The position numbers and the translations under genes are program-made. Of a stretch of DNA of 64,000 bases, positions 3,389 to 59,519 are shown piece after piece. Source of the DNA: Minisyncoccota bacterium (lineage in GTDB: Bacteria; Patescibacteriota; Minisyncoccia; Minisyncoccales; JAQTPW01); the NCBI GenBank assembly GCA_028712565.1, contig JAQTPW010000002.1, positions 99,601-163,600 of the forward strand, written 5' to 3'. The notes beneath the pieces were generated by a model. That model saw only the letters and a list, made by a program, of their open reading frames with translations. It was not told where the DNA came from and did no database searches. The first letter of the stretch is position 1, and each line of letters opens with the position of its first letter.

Positions 3389-5341
3389 TTAAAATTGTCT
3401 GACTTTAACTTTGATAGATTTTTCTTTTTTTGTCAAAGGTTTGGAAGGGTTTTTTGCGATAACTTTTTGGGGTTTGGCGGACTCATTTTTTCCTTTCATT
3501 ATTGCGTCAAATTCTTCTTTTTCAATTGTTTCTTTTTCAACTAGGGTTTTGGCAATTTTTTCCAGTAGCTGCTTCCTTTTTGCTAAAATATTTTGAGCAG
3601 TATTTTCTGCATCTTTTATTATTTTTTCAACCTCTTTATCAATTTGGGAGGCAACTTTTTCAGAATAATTTCTGACTTCGCCAAATTCTTGTCCCAAAAA
3701 TAAAGATTCTTCTCTTTCCCCAAAAGCAATCGGTCCTAATTTTGACATCCCATATACTTTTACCAGCTTTCTTGCCAACGCAGAAGCTTTTTCCAAATCA
3801 TTTGCCGCGCCAGTCGTAATATCCCCGAATTTTAATTTTTCTGCATAGTACCCGCCCAATAAAGTTGAAATTTCTGATAAAAATTCTTTTTTCGTTTTTA
3901 TTTTTCTTTCTTCGGCCGGCATTTTCAAGGTATATCCCGCTGCCATGCCTCTGGCGACAATTGAAACCTTTCGCACGGGTTCAGAATCAGGGAGCGAAGA
4001 AGAAACTAAGGCATGGCCTGCTTCGTGATAAGCGGCAATTTCCTTTTCTTTTTTTGATAAAATATGGCTTTTTCTTTCGGGCCCCAATAATACTTTTTCA
4101 ATTGATTCCAAAAATTCTTCCTGAAATATTTGATGTTTATTCCTACGGGCTGCCAAAAGCGCAGCTTCGTTAGCCAAATTTGCCAAATCTGCTCCGGAAA
4201 ATCCAGGAGTTCTTTCAGAAATTTCCCGCAGATTCACATTCAAAGCCAAAGGTTTGCCCTTGCAATGGATCTTTAAAATTTCTTCCCTGTCATTGACATC
4301 AGGCAAATCCAAAACAATTCTTCTGTCAAACCTGCCTGGCCTCAATAGCGCCGGATCCAAAACGTCAGGCCTGTTAGTAGCGGCAATTACGACCCTGCCG
4401 TCGTCTCTTTCAAAGCCATCCATTTCAGCCAAAATTTGGTTTAGGGTCTGTTCTCTTTCTTCATGGCCGCCGGTTACCCCCATTCCTCTTACTCTTCCTA
4501 TGCTGTCAATTTCATCAATAAAAATTATCGCTCGAGTGGCCCTTTTTGCCTGAGAAAAAAGATCACGAACTCTGCTTGCTCCTACTCCTACAAACAATTC
4601 AATAAATTCAGAGCCGGAAATCGAAAAGAAGGGCACACTCGCTTCATTAGCTATTGCTTTTGCCAAAAGCGTTTTCCCGGTTCCCGGAGGGCCTACCAAT
4701 AAAACTCCTTTTGGAATTCTAGCTCCAATTTGCAGATATTTTTTCGGATTTTTTAAAAAGTCCACTACTTCTTCCAATTCCTGCTTTGCCTCTTTCAACC
4801 CCGCCACGTCTTTGAAAGTAATTTTTTCTTTTGGTTGGCCATCTGCTCCAAATAATCTAGCTCGGGCTTTTGTAAAATCAAATGCCTGCATTGCATTCCC
4901 TTTTGCCTGTCTGAAAATCATCATAAAAAATATTATAAAAAAGACTATCGGCAAAACATAAATTAATACAGGCCCTAGCCAGCTCCAGACGCTAGTTGTC
5001 GCGGCAACGCCAATGTTGACACTGCTTAATTTCGCCGGATCAACTTCTAAATCATTTAATGTTTGAGTCAGCCCGACGCCGCTTTCTTTTAATGATTTTA
5101 CCTGGGTATTGTCTTGATAGGTAATTGTTAGGTTGTCTCCAGAGATAGTTATTGATTTAATTTTCCCTTGGTTGATTTCTTGGACAACCTGGCTAATGTT
5201 TATTTCTTTTAATTGCTGCGATCTTGAGAATAAACTGAAAATCGCAGAAATTATCAGAAAAATTATTAATATAAAAATAAAATTTTTAAATAGGGTTTTC
5301 ATATGCTCTTTTAAAATACCATAAATTTTCTGAAAATTCAA
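3389..5341 (-). CDS. ftsH: ATP-dependent zinc metalloprotease FtsH
   Basis: 650 aa. N-terminal TM segments, Walker [12 protein letters not shown] region and zinc motif HEAGHAL. Confidence 0.97.
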
Positions 5342-14546: not shown

Positions 14547-14614
14547 CCGAGTCAAACTCGGTTCGCAAAACGAGTTTGCGAGGTAGGCGCGTCTGACGCG
14601 CCACCAGGTTATCG

Positions 14615-14643
14615 AAAAGCGCGGCCTCGTGGCCGCGCTTTTT
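14615..14643. terminator. Bidirectional rho-independent terminator (tRNA-Leu transcript / hsp20)
   Basis: AAAAGCGCGGCC-UCGU-GGCCGCGCUUUU lies between convergent units. Confidence 0.75.
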
Positions 14644-18339: not shown

Positions 18340-19503
18340 TTAGGATTTGTCGATTCTAAGATTAGCTTTGGCTTCAATATCGGGATACTTTTTCTTTGGA
18401 TTTTTCAAATAATTAAAATAGGCAGCCAAACCCACCATTGCCGCATTATCAGTAGAAAATTTAGTTTCAGGAACAAAAAATTTTACATTTGGAAGCTCTT
18501 TTTCAATCTTTTCTTTGAATTGTTTTCTTAATTCTTCATTCGCAGTAACTCCGCCGCCCAAAATTACACTTTTTGCTTTAAAATCTTTTGCAGCTTTTAG
18601 GGCTTTCTTCAATAAAACATCAATTATTGCTTGCTGGACTTCGGCGCACATTGCATTTATATATTCTTTCGATTTTTGGGTTTTCCCGCCCGAGGCGGGT
18701 CCGCCTTGGGCGGAGATATTTGATTTTTGATATTTGTATAGTACTGCGGTTTTCAGACCAGAAAAGCTGAAATCGTAATTTTTCTGCGCCATCATAGGCC
18801 GCGGAAGTTTTATTTGTGATTTGTGATTTGTAATTTGTAATTTTGCAGCCGCGGCTGCAATTGCTGGTCCTCCCGGATATCCTAATCCTAAAATTCTGGC
18901 AACCTTATCAAAGCATTCCCCAGCCGCATCGTCTCTTGTTTCACCTAAAATTTGGTATTTTCCAAGACCTTTAGCCAAAATCAACTGCGTATGGCCGCCG
19001 CTCACCACGAGGCACACCGCCGGAAGCAAATTTTTGTAATTTGTAATTTGTAATTTGTAATTTGAGCGAATGAAATTCGCTAAGATGTGGGCTTCGATGT
19101 GGTTAGTGGGCACGATTGGAAGGTTCATTTTCTTTGCTAAATCTTTTGCAAAATTTATTCCCGTCCACAAACAAGGCTCTAACCCCGGACCGTTAGTTAC
19201 AGCAATTAGATCAATTTTTGGTTTCTTTTTGAAGATTGAAAATTGATCATTGAAAATTCCAAAACCTGCTTCTTTTAACGCCCTTTTAAAAACAATAGGC
19301 AAGTTTTTTTGGTGTTCTCTTTTTGCTAGAGACGGAAAAACTCCGCCGTATTTTGCGTGGAGTTTAACTTGTGAGGAAACAATATTGCTAAGAATTTCTA
19401 ATTTCCAATTTTTCCCGCCCGAGGCGGGTCCGCCTTGGGCGGATATTTCCAAAATCGCGATTGCGGTGTCGTCGCAGGAAGTTTCAATAGCGAGGATAAT
19501 CAT
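18340..19503 (-). CDS. tsaD: tRNA N6-adenosine threonylcarbamoyltransferase TsaD, carrying about 50 extra residues in five loop insertions
   Basis: IETSCDDT, VSGGHTQL, DFSFSGLKT and TDNAAM motifs. 387 aa, compared with about 337 aa for the E. coli TsaD sequence I recall. Confidence 0.92.
   Translation of the reverse strand: MIILAIETSCDDTAIAILEISAQGGPASGGKNWKLEILSNIVSSQVKLHAKYGGVFPSLAKREHQKNLPIVFKRALKEAGFGIFNDQFSIFKKKPKIDLIAVTNGPGLEPCLWTGINFAKDLAKKMNLPIVPTNHIEAHILANFIRSNYKLQITNYKNLLPAVCLVVSGGHTQLILAKGLGKYQILGETRDDAAGECFDKVARILGLGYPGGPAIAAAAAKLQITNHKSQIKLPRPMMAQKNYDFSFSGLKTAVLYKYQKSNISAQGGPASGGKTQKSKEYINAMCAEVQQAIIDVLLKKALKAAKDFKAKSVILGGGVTANEELRKQFKEKIEKELPNVKFFVPETKFSTDNAAMVGLAAYFNYLKNPKKKYPDIEAKANLRIDKS
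18681..18742. repeat. GC-rich double-palindrome element copy 1 plus adjacent heptamers, in frame in tsaD
   Basis: ttttcccgcccgaggcgggtccgccttgggcgga (34 nt, identical to 19410-19443) followed by gatattt gattttt gatattt. The element encodes ...SAQGGPASGGK.... Confidence 0.85.
18812..18846. repeat. Heptamer repeat (atttgtg x2, atttgta x2) in frame in tsaD
   Basis: Encodes KLQITNHKSQIK. Confidence 0.8.
19029..19065. repeat. Heptamer repeat (aatttgt x4-5) in frame in tsaD
   Basis: Encodes SNYKLQITNYK. Confidence 0.8.
19393..19443. repeat. Heptamers plus GC-rich double-palindrome element copy 2, in frame in tsaD
   Basis: aatttct aatttcc aattttt followed by the same 34-nt cccgcccgaggcgggtccgccttgggcgga element. 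Encodes SAQGGPASGGK a second time. Confidence 0.85.
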
Positions 19504-22929: not shown

Positions 22930-22955
22930 AAAAATCCGCCCGCGGGCGGATTTTT
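22930..22955. terminator. Bidirectional rho-independent terminator
   Basis: AAAAAUCCGCCCGCGGGCGGAUUUUU. Confidence 0.75.
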
Positions 22956-23040
22956 GTTTTATTCTAAATGAATTCCCCAGTACCAGTCCGTTCTTGGGCG
23001 GACGGTACGGGGCTTCGCTTGTTTTATTCTAAATGTATTC
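22954..23040. repeat. Direct duplication of the recG 3' end (22 nt, 1 mismatch) flanking a 43-nt hairpin
   Basis: ttgttttattctaaatgAattc (22954-22975) and ttgttttattctaaatgTattc (23019-23040). Between them, CCCCAGUACCAGUCCG-UUCUUGGG-CGGACGGUACGGGG folds as a hairpin. Confidence 0.85.
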
Positions 23041-26037: not shown

Positions 26038-26191
26038 ATAAAAAGGGGTGATATGGCGGGCGATATGGAGGAGGGGTTTGCTGGTTGATTTCTGGTCTGG
26101 AAAAATTTTGAGAATTGGAAAATTTTGGAAAAACGGAGAATCTAAAAAGATTTGAAAAAATAATAAATTTAAGTTAATCTTTAAATATAAC

Positions 26192-26281
26192 GGAGAGGTG
26201 GCTGAGTGGCCGAAAGCGGCACGCTGCTAATGTGTTAGGGGAGAAATCCCCTCGTGGGTTCGAATCCCACCCTCTCCGCCA
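26192..26281 (+). tRNA. tRNA-Ser(GCU) with encoded CCA
   Basis: GGAGAGG-UG-GCU-GAGUGGCCGAA-AGC-G-GCACG-CUGCUAA-UGUGU-UAGGGGAGAAAUCCCCUC-GUGGG-UUCGAAU-CCCAC-CCUCUCC-G-CCA. Confidence 0.9.
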
Positions 26282-26309
26282 GTTAGTAAAATTATAATCA
26301 TTTAATTTT

Positions 26310-26624
26310 ATGACTATAAATTTTTATTTTAAAAAAGCCGATAAGGGTTGCGAAGAACAAATTAGAAATCATTTTACAAAAGAAAAACAAGGCAGGATAA
26401 CTCGTTTTTTACAACACGGAAATTTAGACCTTGCTGATTTGAAAATAAACGTAGAATATCTTTCGCATCACAATAATTTTTCAGTTGAATTTATTTTGAT
26501 TATTAAAAAGCATAAATTGGTTGCAGAGAAAACAGCTTTTAAATTATTGGAAGCGTTTGACACGGCTTTGGATAATTTGGTTTTTCAATTAAGAAAATCA
26601 GAAGAGATATTGCACGATAAATAA
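26310..26624 (+). CDS. hpf: Ribosome hibernation factor (HPF/RaiA/YfiA family, short form)
   Basis: 104 aa. The beta-alpha-beta-beta-beta-alpha pattern and the ...LVAEKTAFKLLEAFDTALDNLVFQLRK tail are typical of the family. Confidence 0.6.
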   Translation: MTINFYFKKADKGCEEQIRNHFTKEKQGRITRFLQHGNLDLADLKINVEYLSHHNNFSVEFILIIKKHKLVAEKTAFKLLEAFDTALDNLVFQLRKSEEILHDK

Positions 26625-26628
26625 AAAT

Positions 26629-26870
26629 GGAGAGGTGGCTGAGCGGTTGAAAGCAGCAGTCTTGCCACGTACGAAAGCGGAGGGTTGGCTGAGAGGACTA
26701 TAGCGCTGGTCTTGAAAACCAGTTGGGGAGAAATCCCCTCGGAGGTTCGAATCCTCCACCCTCCGCTTTCTGACGTGGTCTGCGGAAAAACATTGGAATC
26801 GAAGTGAGCCTGCCCCGTATAATCCGAGCGGAGCGAAGATTTGTACGGGGTTCGAATCTCACCCTCTCCG
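26629..26870 (+). other. Split tRNA-Ser-like gene (5' half 26629-26664; 3' half ~26779-26870) interrupted by tRNA-Ser(UGA) and by a 42-nt hairpin inside the T arm
   Basis: The 5' part GGAGAGGUGGCUGAGCGGUUGAAAGCAGCA matches tRNA-Ser(GCU) at 26 of 30 positions. The 3' part is GUGAG[42-nt insert]UUCGAAU-CUCAC-CCUCUCC-G. The acceptor strands are perfectly complementary. See findings. Confidence 0.5.
26679..26765 (+). tRNA. tRNA-Ser(UGA)
   Basis: GGAGGGU-UG-GCU-GAGAGGACUAU-AGC-G-CUGGU-CUUGAAA-ACCAG-UUGGGGAGAAAUCCCCUC-GGAGG-UUCGAAU-CCUCC-ACCCUCC-G. Confidence 0.9.
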
Positions 26871-26997
26871 CCTTCGCTCCGCCGAAGCCCTAAAGGGCGG
26901 AGGCGGGCTTCGCCAGAGCTTCGGCGTGACAAGTCCGCAACGTAATAAATTTTCTGAGAAAATTTAAACGTTGCTGAAAAATTTTTATATTAAATTT

Positions 26998-27171
26998 ATG
27001 GAACATAAAGAGGCGATTAAAGTTTTAATGAAATTACTAGACAAAAAGGTGCTTGATAAAAAAGAAAAGGAAGCAGTTTTGACTTCTATAGGAATTTTGG
27101 ACTGGACCTCAAGGACTAAAAATAGAATAAAATTAATAAAAGACAAAAAAGAAAGGGATTTGAAATGGTAA
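26998..27171 (+). CDS. Small hypothetical protein (57 aa, K/E-rich)
   Basis: ORF track 26971..27171; ATG at 26998 (MEHKEAIKVL). No recognisable family. Confidence 0.35.
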   Translation: MEHKEAIKVLMKLLDKKVLDKKEKEAVLTSIGILDWTSRTKNRIKLIKDKKERDLKW

Positions 27172-58450: not shown

Positions 58451-58514
58451 CCCAAAACCACGTTGGGTTTGGGGCTGCCATGTACCCTAAGTGGTGCATG
58501 GCGCCTTCGCCTCC

Positions 58515-59519
58515 CTATTCTTTCATTTTGTTTTTAAGTTCGTCAATAAGCTTGTTTTCAAAAGGATTTATTTTTTGTACTTTAGCAAGATAATACGAAG
58601 TCCAATAAAACAGAATCAAAGAGTTTATTATTTTTTCAAATATCGTCTTTCCGGAAATTTCTATAAAATTTACTTCAGATCCCCGGGATTTTATTATATC
58701 TGCCGTAATATCCATCCTTTTTGAAACTCGGTCATTTTCATCATTTGACTTTAGAATAAGGACTGTGAATTTTGATTCTTTGGAATTGAAAGCTTCAATT
58801 TCATTATGGTCCAATTCCGGGAATTTGTTCCAGAAAGCCGGCATTTTGGAATTTTCATTCAGAAGTATTTTAAATATAAAAGCCAGAGGTTCGTATTTTT
58901 GCGAGCTGTAAATCAGAGGGATTTTGCCGAGAATCTTTTCTGAAAGGCCCCTCCCTTCTTTATCCAATTTTTCCTCATCCAAATTATCAATGATATTTAA
59001 AATATTTTCGCTAACTTCGGGCAGGATATGAGAATTTTCTAAAATTTTCAAAAGTGCGGAAAACTGGTACCCCAAAGCCATTCTCGGGGGAAGCCCGGGC
59101 GGAATAATTGAAAGCGGGACCCCATTTTCTTTGCACAGTTTTTCAATCTCTCCTCCTGAAGATATGGCAATGATATTTAATTTTTTTCCAAGAGATTCTT
59201 TAAATGACGAAATTGTTTCTTCGGTATTGCCAGAATATGATATAGCTACAATTAAGCTGTTTTCGTCAGCCAAAAGCGGAACTTCATAATTTCGATGGAT
59301 AAAAACCGGAATTTTTATTTTCAAGGAATTTGTTAAAAGCTGAAGCAGTTCTCCGGGCAAGGCGCTTCCGCCCATGCCGCAGATAAAGATATTTTTTATT
59401 TTTTTACTGTCTAATTCTGCTCCGGTATTTTTAGCTAAATCAAAACCTGCCGCAAATTGTTTTTTAAAACCTAATATAATATTGCGCATATCCATTTCTA
59501 TATTATTTTTTATTTCCAT
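58515..59519 (-). CDS. Bifunctional phosphoglucose/phosphomannose isomerase (SIS domain)
   Basis: ICGMGGSALPGELL and ISYSGNTEET SIS motifs. 334 aa. Confidence 0.8.
   Translation of the reverse strand: MEIKNNIEMDMRNIILGFKKQFAAGFDLAKNTGAELDSKKIKNIFICGMGGSALPGELLQLLTNSLKIKIPVFIHRNYEVPLLADENSLIVAISYSGNTEETISSFKESLGKKLNIIAISSGGEIEKLCKENGVPLSIIPPGLPPRMALGYQFSALLKILENSHILPEVSENILNIIDNLDEEKLDKEGRGLSEKILGKIPLIYSSQKYEPLAFIFKILLNENSKMPAFWNKFPELDHNEIEAFNSKESKFTVLILKSNDENDRVSKRMDITADIIKSRGSEVNFIEISGKTIFEKIINSLILFYWTSYYLAKVQKINPFENKLIDELKNKMKE

Follow-up and report, generated by a model that had tools for sequence, protein, structure and literature searches.

We analyzed a 64,000-nucleotide stretch of a Minisyncoccota bacterium genome (contig JAQTPW010000002.1, positions 99,601 to 163,600; hereafter the window) and found that positions 26629-26870 hold two halves of a tRNA-Ser-like gene flanking an intact tRNA-Ser(UGA), with a 42-nt hairpin in the T arm of the outer gene. 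The evidence supports a model in which the resident gene was inactivated by an insert carrying a complete replacement tRNA. Comparison with other genomes and metagenome contigs further makes it likely, in our judgment, that cassettes of this kind, each a replacement tRNA mounted on a paired stalk, insert recurrently into resident tRNA genes together with GC-rich palindromes, and that in the resulting nests the inner tRNA works and the outer one is dead.

All parts of the nest lie on the plus strand. The 5′ part of the resident tRNA-Ser(UGA) (26629-26664) comprises the acceptor 5′ strand, the D arm, the 5′ strand of the anticodon stem and loop positions 32-35; it reads GGAGAGG-TG-GCTG-AGCGGTTGAA-AGCA-GCAG..CTTG and stops after CTTG, between anticodon bases G35 and A36. 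Next comes a cassette of about 114-120 bp, consisting of a 14-nt leader (CCACGTACGAAAGC, 26665-26678), a complete and different tRNA-Ser(UGA) (positions 1-72 at 26679-26764) and a 14-nt trailer (GCTTTCTGACGTGG, 26765-26778) that pairs with the leader at 12 of 14 positions. The resident sequence resumes with a scrambled middle part (26779-26803), delimited by alignment to the related loci L001 and L002 (loci are given here by L numbers) and by running ARAGORN on a spliced construct. This part opens with TCTGCGG, whose CTGC pairs with GCAG at 26656-26659, followed by the residue of the 3′ side of the anticodon loop, the 3′ strand of the stem and a collapsed, helix-less variable arm. The 5′ strand of the T stem (GTGAG, 26804-26808) is the same as in L001 and pairs with 26858-26862. 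Between T-stem position 53 and T-loop position 54 lies the 42-nt GC-rich palindromic insertion (CCTG followed by CCCCGTA...TACGGGG; 26809-26850), and the relic closes with the T loop, the 3′ strands of the T and acceptor stems and G73 (TTCGAAT-CTCAC-CCTCTCC-G; 26851-26870), the acceptor strand pairing at 7/7 positions with 26629-26635.

The minimum free energy fold of 26629-26873 reproduces this architecture at -108.1 kcal/mol (z = -4.99), and none of 200 shuffled sequences was as stable. At the junctions, an asymmetric 5-nt/1-nt loop is followed in the fold by two 6-bp helices with a 2x2 loop between them. The architecture is far beyond chance. The outer pieces are identical over 26/26 and 27/27 positions to the intact orthologous tRNA of a relative. 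A preliminary description of the locus had already proposed an intact tRNA-Ser(UGA) within a split tRNA-Ser-like gene bearing a T-arm hairpin, and coordinates, ARAGORN, Rfam and the fold agree with it. Three further details of that description held as well: the outer 5′ part matches the window's tRNA-Ser(GCU) at 26192 at 26 of its first 30 nt, the outer acceptor strands are fully complementary, and the inner tRNA stands on an interrupted stalk, formed by a 21-nt inverted repeat (I1; 26665-26685 and 26758-26778) that is 90% complementary.

The inner tRNA is, judging from its sequence, the working gene. ARAGORN reports it as tRNA-Ser(UGA) at 26679-26766, the Rfam tRNA model gives 57 bits at 26679-26765, and it is the sole tRNA-Ser(UGA) within the window. 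Its G73 is position 26765, and like several other tRNAs in the window it has no encoded CCA. The inner tRNA is only 79% identical to the resident type and is therefore not a local self-copy; the nearest sequences are cassette tRNAs of other contigs, at 84% identity.

Pairing between leader and trailer lengthens the inner acceptor stem, so that an interrupted helix of about 19 bp plus a 2x2 internal loop results. The stalk itself consists of 6 bp, this loop and 6 bp, with G73 opposite leader position -1 and C74 opposite -2. Ordinary tRNAs have no stalk: scored for such pairing, the nested tRNA reaches 12/14 and the other eight tRNAs of the window 2-6/14. Across all loci, three tRNAs not flagged as nested scored 11/14, two of which proved on inspection to be nested. 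We aligned 18 cassettes, each as a 14-nt leader, a tRNA and a 14-nt trailer. In this alignment 84.9% of stalk cells are paired, a value reached in 0/500 shuffles; the percentage is partly circular, since the members were picked for having a stalk, and the covariation is not. Both sides change in 12 of the 14 pairs, and controls in which the partner strand was slid by 1-3 columns gave 46-52% pairing. The GC at -2/-1 and the GC at 73/74 are invariant (18/18), and unpaired cells concentrate in columns 7-8, the place of the 2x2 internal loop in the window. These alignments indicate that the stalk is a conserved structure.

The outer halves can be traced to an ordinary gene. We gathered orthologous loci of relatives through homologues of the neighboring ComF (64-69% identical to that of the window), a search with hpf having returned only its self match. 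L001 and L004 each carry one ordinary tRNA-Ser(UGA) that starts 5-6 nt past the hpf stop codon, L300 has one about 45 nt downstream of hpf, and L002/L003 have one in the same recG-comF interval, where hpf was not called. In a fifth relative (contig P0007) the gap between comF and hpf is 190 nt, compared with 590 nt in the window, so the nest would not fit. Because the outer pieces show no mismatch to the L001 tRNA, neither in the first 26 nt of the 5′ part (26/26) nor in GTGAG plus TTCGAATCTCACCCTCTCCGCC of the 3′ part (27/27), sequence comparison identifies the outer halves as the resident, ancestral single tRNA-Ser(UGA) of the locus, downstream of hpf. The preliminary description had proposed such an alignment as a way to find compensatory changes in the outer stems. 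It did yield the plain orthologue; the candidate T-stem change, GTGGG/CCCAC in the window's tRNA-Ser(GCU) versus GTGAG/CTCAC in the relic, turned out to be inherited, as L001 also has GTGAG/CTCAC.

Neither ARAGORN nor the Rfam tRNA model calls the outer gene. The preliminary description had also suggested calling tRNAs with and without the inserts: in the intact sequence the outer gene goes uncalled, and in silico deletion of both 26665-26778 and 26809-26850 leaves only a weak ARAGORN "tRNA-Thr(tgt)". The spliced construct has two anticodon-stem mismatches, no UGA loop and an unstructured 20-nt variable loop. Compared with L001, the relic's variable arm is about 8 nt shorter and has lost its helix, and the anticodon loop is disrupted. 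A long variable-arm helix is the main serine identity element of a tRNA, and with this helix lost, even perfect removal of both inserts would yield no serine tRNA. On these grounds the outer gene is most likely dead, a relic. Among the three alternatives offered in the preliminary description, a pseudogene wrecked by insertions, local GC-rich palindromes included, thus fits best, given the plain orthologue in relatives and the loss of the anticodon loop and the variable-arm helix.

The layout of a tRNA within a dead tRNA recurs well beyond the window, in at least sixteen other distinct loci, all from different assemblies than the window. A first scan, over one genome per species with the pattern TGGCTGAGNGG..TGGCTGAGNGG, was too loose, 117 of 120 being chance matches among those listed; it nevertheless gave at least three further nests (L034, L091 and L103), all of tRNA-Ser(UGA). 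L034 is a metagenome-assembled genome of Candidatus Kerfeldbacteria, and L091 is one that bears the label Gammaproteobacteria and has the same recG and PaaX-like synteny as the window. A second scan, of metagenome contigs with a tighter pattern, returned 54 stretches representing 37 distinct cases, in which a 5′ tRNA-Ser fragment is followed within 10-30 nt by an intact tRNA-Ser with anticodon UGA, CGA, GCU or GGA. Stalked cassettes, paired at 9 or more of 14 positions, make up 19 of the 37, the window's own included. Their leaders end in ...GC before G1, and their trailers begin with G73 and C74 and pair back along the leader. GC-rich hairpins of the CCGCC..GGCGG or TCCCG..CGGGA type often follow them; these sit directly after the CTTG or CTCG of the relic anticodon loop, and the relic resumes at AAAA. 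The other cases are plain, stalkless tandem duplications of "leader plus 5′ half", mostly on higher-GC contigs.

L034 holds three consecutive nests at 4110-5270, namely Arg(GCG) in Arg, Ser(GCU) in Ser(GCU) and Ser(UGA) in Ser(UGA), with a further 3′ remnant of a third level at about 4940-4965. Because L034 has a tRNA-Arg(GCG) in a relic tRNA-Arg, nesting is not limited to serine tRNAs. Stalk, 35/36 break and T-arm hairpin all reappear in many unrelated contigs, and the nest in the window is therefore more than a random wreck. Overall, across many Patescibacteria-like genomes the layout recurs, is structured and seems to renew itself.

Several lines of comparison bear on how nests arise and turn over. 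The nests in syntenic recG/comF surroundings (L034, L091, L165, L131 and L172) are distant from the window, with RecG 38-43% and ComF 27-35% identical, whereas much closer relatives of the window are un-nested. The cassette site also varies. It follows CTTG or CTCG in the nests of the window, L091, L034, L172 and L175, lies within the D loop in L165, and takes the place of the 5′ strand of the anticodon stem in L131, L134 and L168. Nests therefore had several origins. Among tRNA-Ser(CGA) nests, allele A is the relic and allele B the insert in L167, L168 and L176, and the roles are exchanged in L150 and L174; likewise, the type that is inserted in L103 forms the broken relic in L145. When L174 is set against L150, its 5′ relic is of allele B and a downstream 3′ relic is of the insert's own type, so that L174 looks like a palimpsest of more than one round of replacement.

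Several observations suggest that the relic is dispensable. Five population variants (L127, L132, L148, L170 and L173) have three polymorphic sites, two in the relic and one in the spacer, and none in the insert or stalk. The 3′ half of the relic is absent or decayed, with the insert intact, in L143, L176, L103 and L150. L143 and L134 have their relic 5′ part, their cassette and their first hairpin in common, but L143 has other flanks and lacks the relic 3′ half; the half that has decayed in L176 is intact in L167 and L168. Between the stalks of the latter two there are at least two compensatory changes.

GC-rich palindromes accompany many of these loci. The T-arm element of the window is 42 nt long with an 11-bp stem, and the relic tRNA-Arg of L034 contains a homologous hairpin, GTCCCGTGGATTCTAGCGGAGCGAGGATCTATAGGGG, just 5′ of its T loop, to be compared with CCCCGTATAATCCGAGCGGAGCGAAGATTTGTACGGGG at 26809-26850 of the window. 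Both elements lie between positions 53 and 54, have the same loop (AGCGGAGCGARGAT) and adopt the same fold. A second hairpin, again CCCCGTA..TACGGGG, comes after the anticodon loop of the L034 tRNA-Arg relic, and in L091 a hairpin likewise lies in the relic T loop. The loop of the window element (GCGGAGCGAAG, 26828-26838) has a perfect 11-nt complement downstream, as the preliminary description had noticed, at 26872-26882, one base to the right of the 26871-26881 given there. This complementarity is absent in L034, and the pairing is therefore probably not functional.

Hairpins with similar termini occur at 22972-23023 of the window and in L034. The former (flanks 22955-23040) is a 47-nt GC-rich palindrome, GCGAAGCCCCGTACC...GGTACTGGGGAAT on the minus strand, whose termini resemble those of the T-arm hairpin; it lies between 17-nt direct repeats (CATTTAGAATAAAACAA) that include the recG stop codon, and looks like an insertion with a long target duplication. 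A double hairpin, CCCGCCCGAGGCGGGTCCGCCTTGGGCGGA, is present near tRNA-Glu in two copies (18680-18712 and 19413-19445), and an element of the same type also lies within the anticodon loops of relic tRNAs in L131 and L134. GC-rich multi-hairpin blocks adjoin two leucine tRNAs, directly downstream of tRNA-Leu(UAG) at 14549-14641 and directly upstream of tRNA-Leu(CAG) at 58451-58516; we found no relic tRNA fragments around either block. In L138, L160 and L162, dead 5′ fragments upstream of tRNA-Ser(UGA) carry perfect palindromes of the TCCCG..CGGGA type in the D loop (for example, TCCCGATAGCTATCGGGA), which suggests that such palindromes colonize non-functional tRNA copies.

We propose the following model for how a nest could form and be expressed. 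The cassette would belong to a widespread stalk-flanked class that inserts in a resident tRNA of its own type, in the 5′ half or the anticodon loop, replaces the lost function and uses the resident's transcription. As the insert lies downstream of the resident transcription start, it is expressible without a promoter of its own: transcription would enter from the resident promoter or from hpf and read through the relic 5′ part and the cassette. RNase P and 3′-end processing enzymes would then free the inner tRNA, the stalk possibly being opened by a double-strand-specific nuclease, as in rRNA operons. CCA would be added to the inner tRNA after its release, and the relic halves would be discarded as by-products and not rejoined. 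The palindromes (TCCCG..CGGGA, CCCCGTA..TACGGGG and CCGCC..GGCGG) may come with the cassettes or enter the dead copy later. Candidate routes of entry include single-strand transposition of the HUH type 3′ of a tetranucleotide. IS91 uses CTTG/GTTC as such a tetranucleotide, and IS200/IS605 elements use others. Alternatively, entry could occur by recombination after DNA uptake, with the conserved tRNA halves as arms, or by snap-back synthesis with the acceptor stem as primer, which would give a leader that is the reverse complement of the trailer.

More tentatively, stalk-flanked tRNA cassettes may represent a previously unrecognized class of selfish or mobile elements in Patescibacteria and some other bacteria, a possibility that we regard as somewhat doubtful. 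The unit would measure about 115-130 bp and consist of a leader, a complete tRNA and a complementary trailer, often with ends of the TCCCG..CGGGA type. It would home into the anticodon loop or 5′ half of a resident tRNA of the same specificity, kill the gene and borrow its promoter, and successive waves of replacement would give A-in-B, B-in-A and three-level nests. Homing might use the tRNA halves as homology arms or an HUH-type single-strand transposase acting in trans.

A number of observations weigh against the replacement-cassette model or its mobile extension, besides the partial circularity of the stalk percentage. We saw no integrase, transposase or nuclease gene near any nest, and viral scans for a phage copy of the cassette gave only chance matches or tandem repeats, so the case for mobility comes from distribution only. 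The window itself contains only one copy of the cassette. The relic's acceptor, D and T parts carry 0/53 substitutions, as opposed to its scrambled middle; these pristine ends point to recent rearrangement and not slow decay, or else there may be some constraint on those parts. Similarly, the relic halves of L167 and L168 are 30/32 and 51/52 identical although their stalks and spacers have diverged, reflecting either separate recent invasions or, less favorably for the model, selection on the halves as homology arms or a processing handle. In L091 and L165 the insert and relic are nearly identical, and the trailers of insert and relic in L091 agree over 15 nt, the leader being roughly their reverse complement; a local copying process may lie behind some nests, such as these two.

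Such copying leads to a rival explanation for the window itself, a one-time local accident by partial duplication, template switch or snap-back synthesis, with palindromes landing later and no mobile cassette involved. It would account for the stalkless tandem duplications of "leader plus 5′ half" that are common in other bacteria (L147, L158 and L159), for L165, where insert and relic are identical, and for L091, where the relation of trailer to leader is exactly what snap-back priming from the acceptor stem would give. The insert in the window, however, is closer to cassette tRNAs from other contigs than to the resident type, and its stalk architecture, with the invariant GC/GC and the central internal loop, is common to 18 cassettes in unrelated contexts. 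A junction motif, (T)CCNCG(A)TAC, follows CTTG in the window, L091, L172, L175, L103 and L145, and alleles A and B have replaced each other reciprocally. We therefore regard a purely local accident as unlikely. Comparable in standing is the idea that the relic's acceptor/T-arm minihelix is retained as a processing scaffold: RNase P and RNase Z would cut at its ends, which would define where the hpf mRNA stops on its 3′ side and liberate a compact precursor that then yields the inner tRNA. The preliminary description had listed a scaffold among its alternatives; it found no positive support in our analysis and seems improbable to us. The unblemished relic ends, the start of the relic 4 nt past the hpf stop and the conserved halves of L167/L168 could all be read in its favor, but the inner tRNA is itself a full substrate for RNase P and RNase Z and the relic is thus not needed, 42 nt interrupt the T arm, and the relic 3′ half is missing or decayed beside an intact insert in the four loci named above.

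Two further explanations appear very improbable. In one, the outer halves form a functional split or intervened tRNA, rejoined or kept paired once the inner tRNA and the T-arm hairpin have been removed. They would then make up a second working tRNA, and the case would be a bacterial tRNA intron of a new kind. The outer acceptor does pair at 7/7 positions and the T stem at 5/5, the D arm is intact, L034 has a homologous T-arm hairpin at the identical position, and the break at 35/36 is the site of self-splicing group I introns in Patescibacteria tRNA-Asn and tRNA-Asp (PMC13011429). Against this, the spliced product lacks a proper anticodon loop or stem and has no helix in its variable arm, the relic acceptors are mismatched in L034 (4 of 7) and L091, other nests have close variants in which the relic 3′ half has decayed or is gone, and one plain gene suffices in relatives. 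Nor did known intron types fit: there was no Rfam Intron_gpI match in 26100-27100 even at E ≤ 10 and none in six other nests, and the relic 5′ exon ends in G35 (...CTTG) and not in U. An archaeal-type intron was likewise rejected, as the fold contains no 3-4-3 bulge-helix-bulge motif and the joined exons do not make a canonical tRNA. The genuinely novel split tRNA contemplated in the preliminary description is thus not supported. Searching Rfam with the inserts of the window and six other nests, we also found no small ribozymes or other known RNA families.

The other explanation is a scar left by a tyrosine-integrase element at an anticodon-loop attachment site, deleted down to about 120 bp. 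The anticodon loop and the T loop are reportedly the classical crossover sublocations for integrases in tRNA genes, and both breaks in the window lie at these loops. An integrase-like open reading frame (ORF) lies just downstream of the tRNA in L130, and there is an archaeal precedent in which a 5′ fragment and a new tRNA are separated by a recombinase element (PMC3293823). On the other hand, there is no integrase within 6 kb on either side in the window or the other stalked nests, and the restored tRNA is a complete foreign gene and not a hybrid. A direct repeat of the tRNA segment from crossover to 3′ end is absent in the window (GTCT only), L091, L034 and L175, and an attachment-site scar would leave a stalk with compensatory changes unexplained. 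As for a target-site duplication, GTCT(TG) is repeated in the window and not in L091, L034 or L175, and is no general feature. Clustering of ORFs over 26 nest loci recovered only synteny genes (recG, comF and a PaaX-like gene) and no recombinase family in common, and Pfam searches on the neighboring genes in the window gave nothing related to mobility.

In the literature that we searched, there was no description of a complete stalked tRNA nested in a relic of the same tRNA in bacteria. The replacement-cassette model finds what appear to be its nearest analogues in gene-restoring integrative elements that target tRNA genes, with archaeal disrupted tRNAs also close. Integrative elements, such as phages and islands, share the anticodon-loop or T-loop target, an insertion that by itself would kill the gene, incoming DNA that brings a working replacement and a displaced tRNA fragment that remains. 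They are kilobases long, however, encode an integrase, restore a hybrid of resident 5′ and element 3′ sequence and leave a direct repeat, whereas the insert in the window is about 120 bp, contains no protein gene, brings a whole tRNA on a stalk and is flanked by both resident halves. Archaeal disrupted tRNAs, which include split and permuted forms and bulge-helix-bulge introns at non-canonical positions, and the model for Caldiarchaeum tRNA-Thr, resemble the nest in their anticodon- and T-arm interruptions and in an older 5′ fragment upstream of a newer gene, and a mobile-element origin has been proposed for that case (PMC3293823). In Archaea, a splicing endonuclease rejoins the pieces at bulge-helix-bulge motifs into functional tRNAs; in the nest, the host is bacterial, no such motif is found, splicing would not give a tRNA-Ser and the functional tRNA is the "intron" itself. 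The group I introns of Patescibacteria tRNA-Asn and tRNA-Asp, which have a conserved core and were shown to splice in vitro, come from the same phylum, occupy the same unusual 35/36 position and are likewise missed by standard tRNA finders (PMC13011429). The nest insert differs in being a tRNA, with no group I core by Rfam, and tRNA-Ser, nesting and hairpins are not mentioned in that report.

Both the cassette and the T-arm element are small and non-coding and have terminal inverted repeats, as in repetitive extragenic palindromes (REP/REPIN), MITEs (miniature inverted-repeat transposable elements) and PATE-type repeats. These repeats are similarly short, GC-rich, non-coding hairpins with conserved termini and no or unclear target duplication, and the likeness may extend to the related hairpins at 22972-23023, 18680 and 19410 of the window and to those of other genomes. 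The cassettes differ in that the stalk sequence is not conserved between them, only its pairing, and we know of no REP/REPIN, MITE or PATE family with a complete tRNA in its loop or a preference for tRNA loops; near the nests we saw no candidate for a cognate transposase, such as one of the HUH Y1/RAYT or IS91 type. Finally, the leader/trailer stalks of rRNA operons, which are RNase III sites, are also long helices that flank a structured RNA gene and evolve by compensatory change. They are known for 16S and 23S rRNA and not for single bacterial tRNA genes, and the stalk of the nest differs in that its helix continues straight into the acceptor stem, pairing G73 and C74.

Taken together, the comparisons point to nests as an undescribed way of replacing a tRNA gene. 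Given the tiny genomes of Patescibacteria, in which tRNA genes are single-copy, every insertion into such a gene should be lethal; the nests would instead show an essential tRNA gene overwritten in place without loss of function, apparently repeatedly and in both directions. If mobile, the cassettes would count among the smallest mobile units that carry a gene, and they would represent a new type, in which the cargo tRNA forms part of the element's own hairpin. For annotation, tRNA finders report only the inner gene, relic halves can be mistaken for split or intron-containing tRNAs, and in other genomes real genes may go unseen where GC-rich palindromes lie in tRNA loops. The covarying stalk also raises the question of how bacteria mature a tRNA whose leader and trailer are fully paired.

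The window has a GC content of about 37%, and its genes include recG, comF, pilM/O, a type IV pilus ATPase gene and hpf; by the ORF list and Pfam, the neighbors of the insert are recG, a PaaX-like gene, hpf, comF and pilM. The hpf gene (26310-26624, plus strand; HPF/RaiA ribosome hibernation factor, Pfam PF02482) is supported by its ORF and by synteny with relatives, and is the probable source of transcription for the nest. A weak promoter-like site lies at 26547-26576, and a scan of the region downstream of it revealed no terminator before 27187. Behind the nest, a GC-rich multi-hairpin trailer (26871-26935, plus strand; inverted repeats I2, I9 and I11) occupies the place of the relatives' plain terminator, L001 and L300 having simple terminators at the corresponding position.

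Between the nest and comF lies a 66-amino-acid ORF (26971-27171) without a match in Pfam. None of the relatives examined has a counterpart; they have unrelated genes in the same gap. In the un-nested relative L300, a small ORF with a GIY-YIG nuclease domain (4839-5084) adjoins hpf. Elsewhere in the window, a tRNA-Ile with anticodon UAU is encoded on the minus strand at 2548-2622, an uncommon bacterial means of reading AUA codons.

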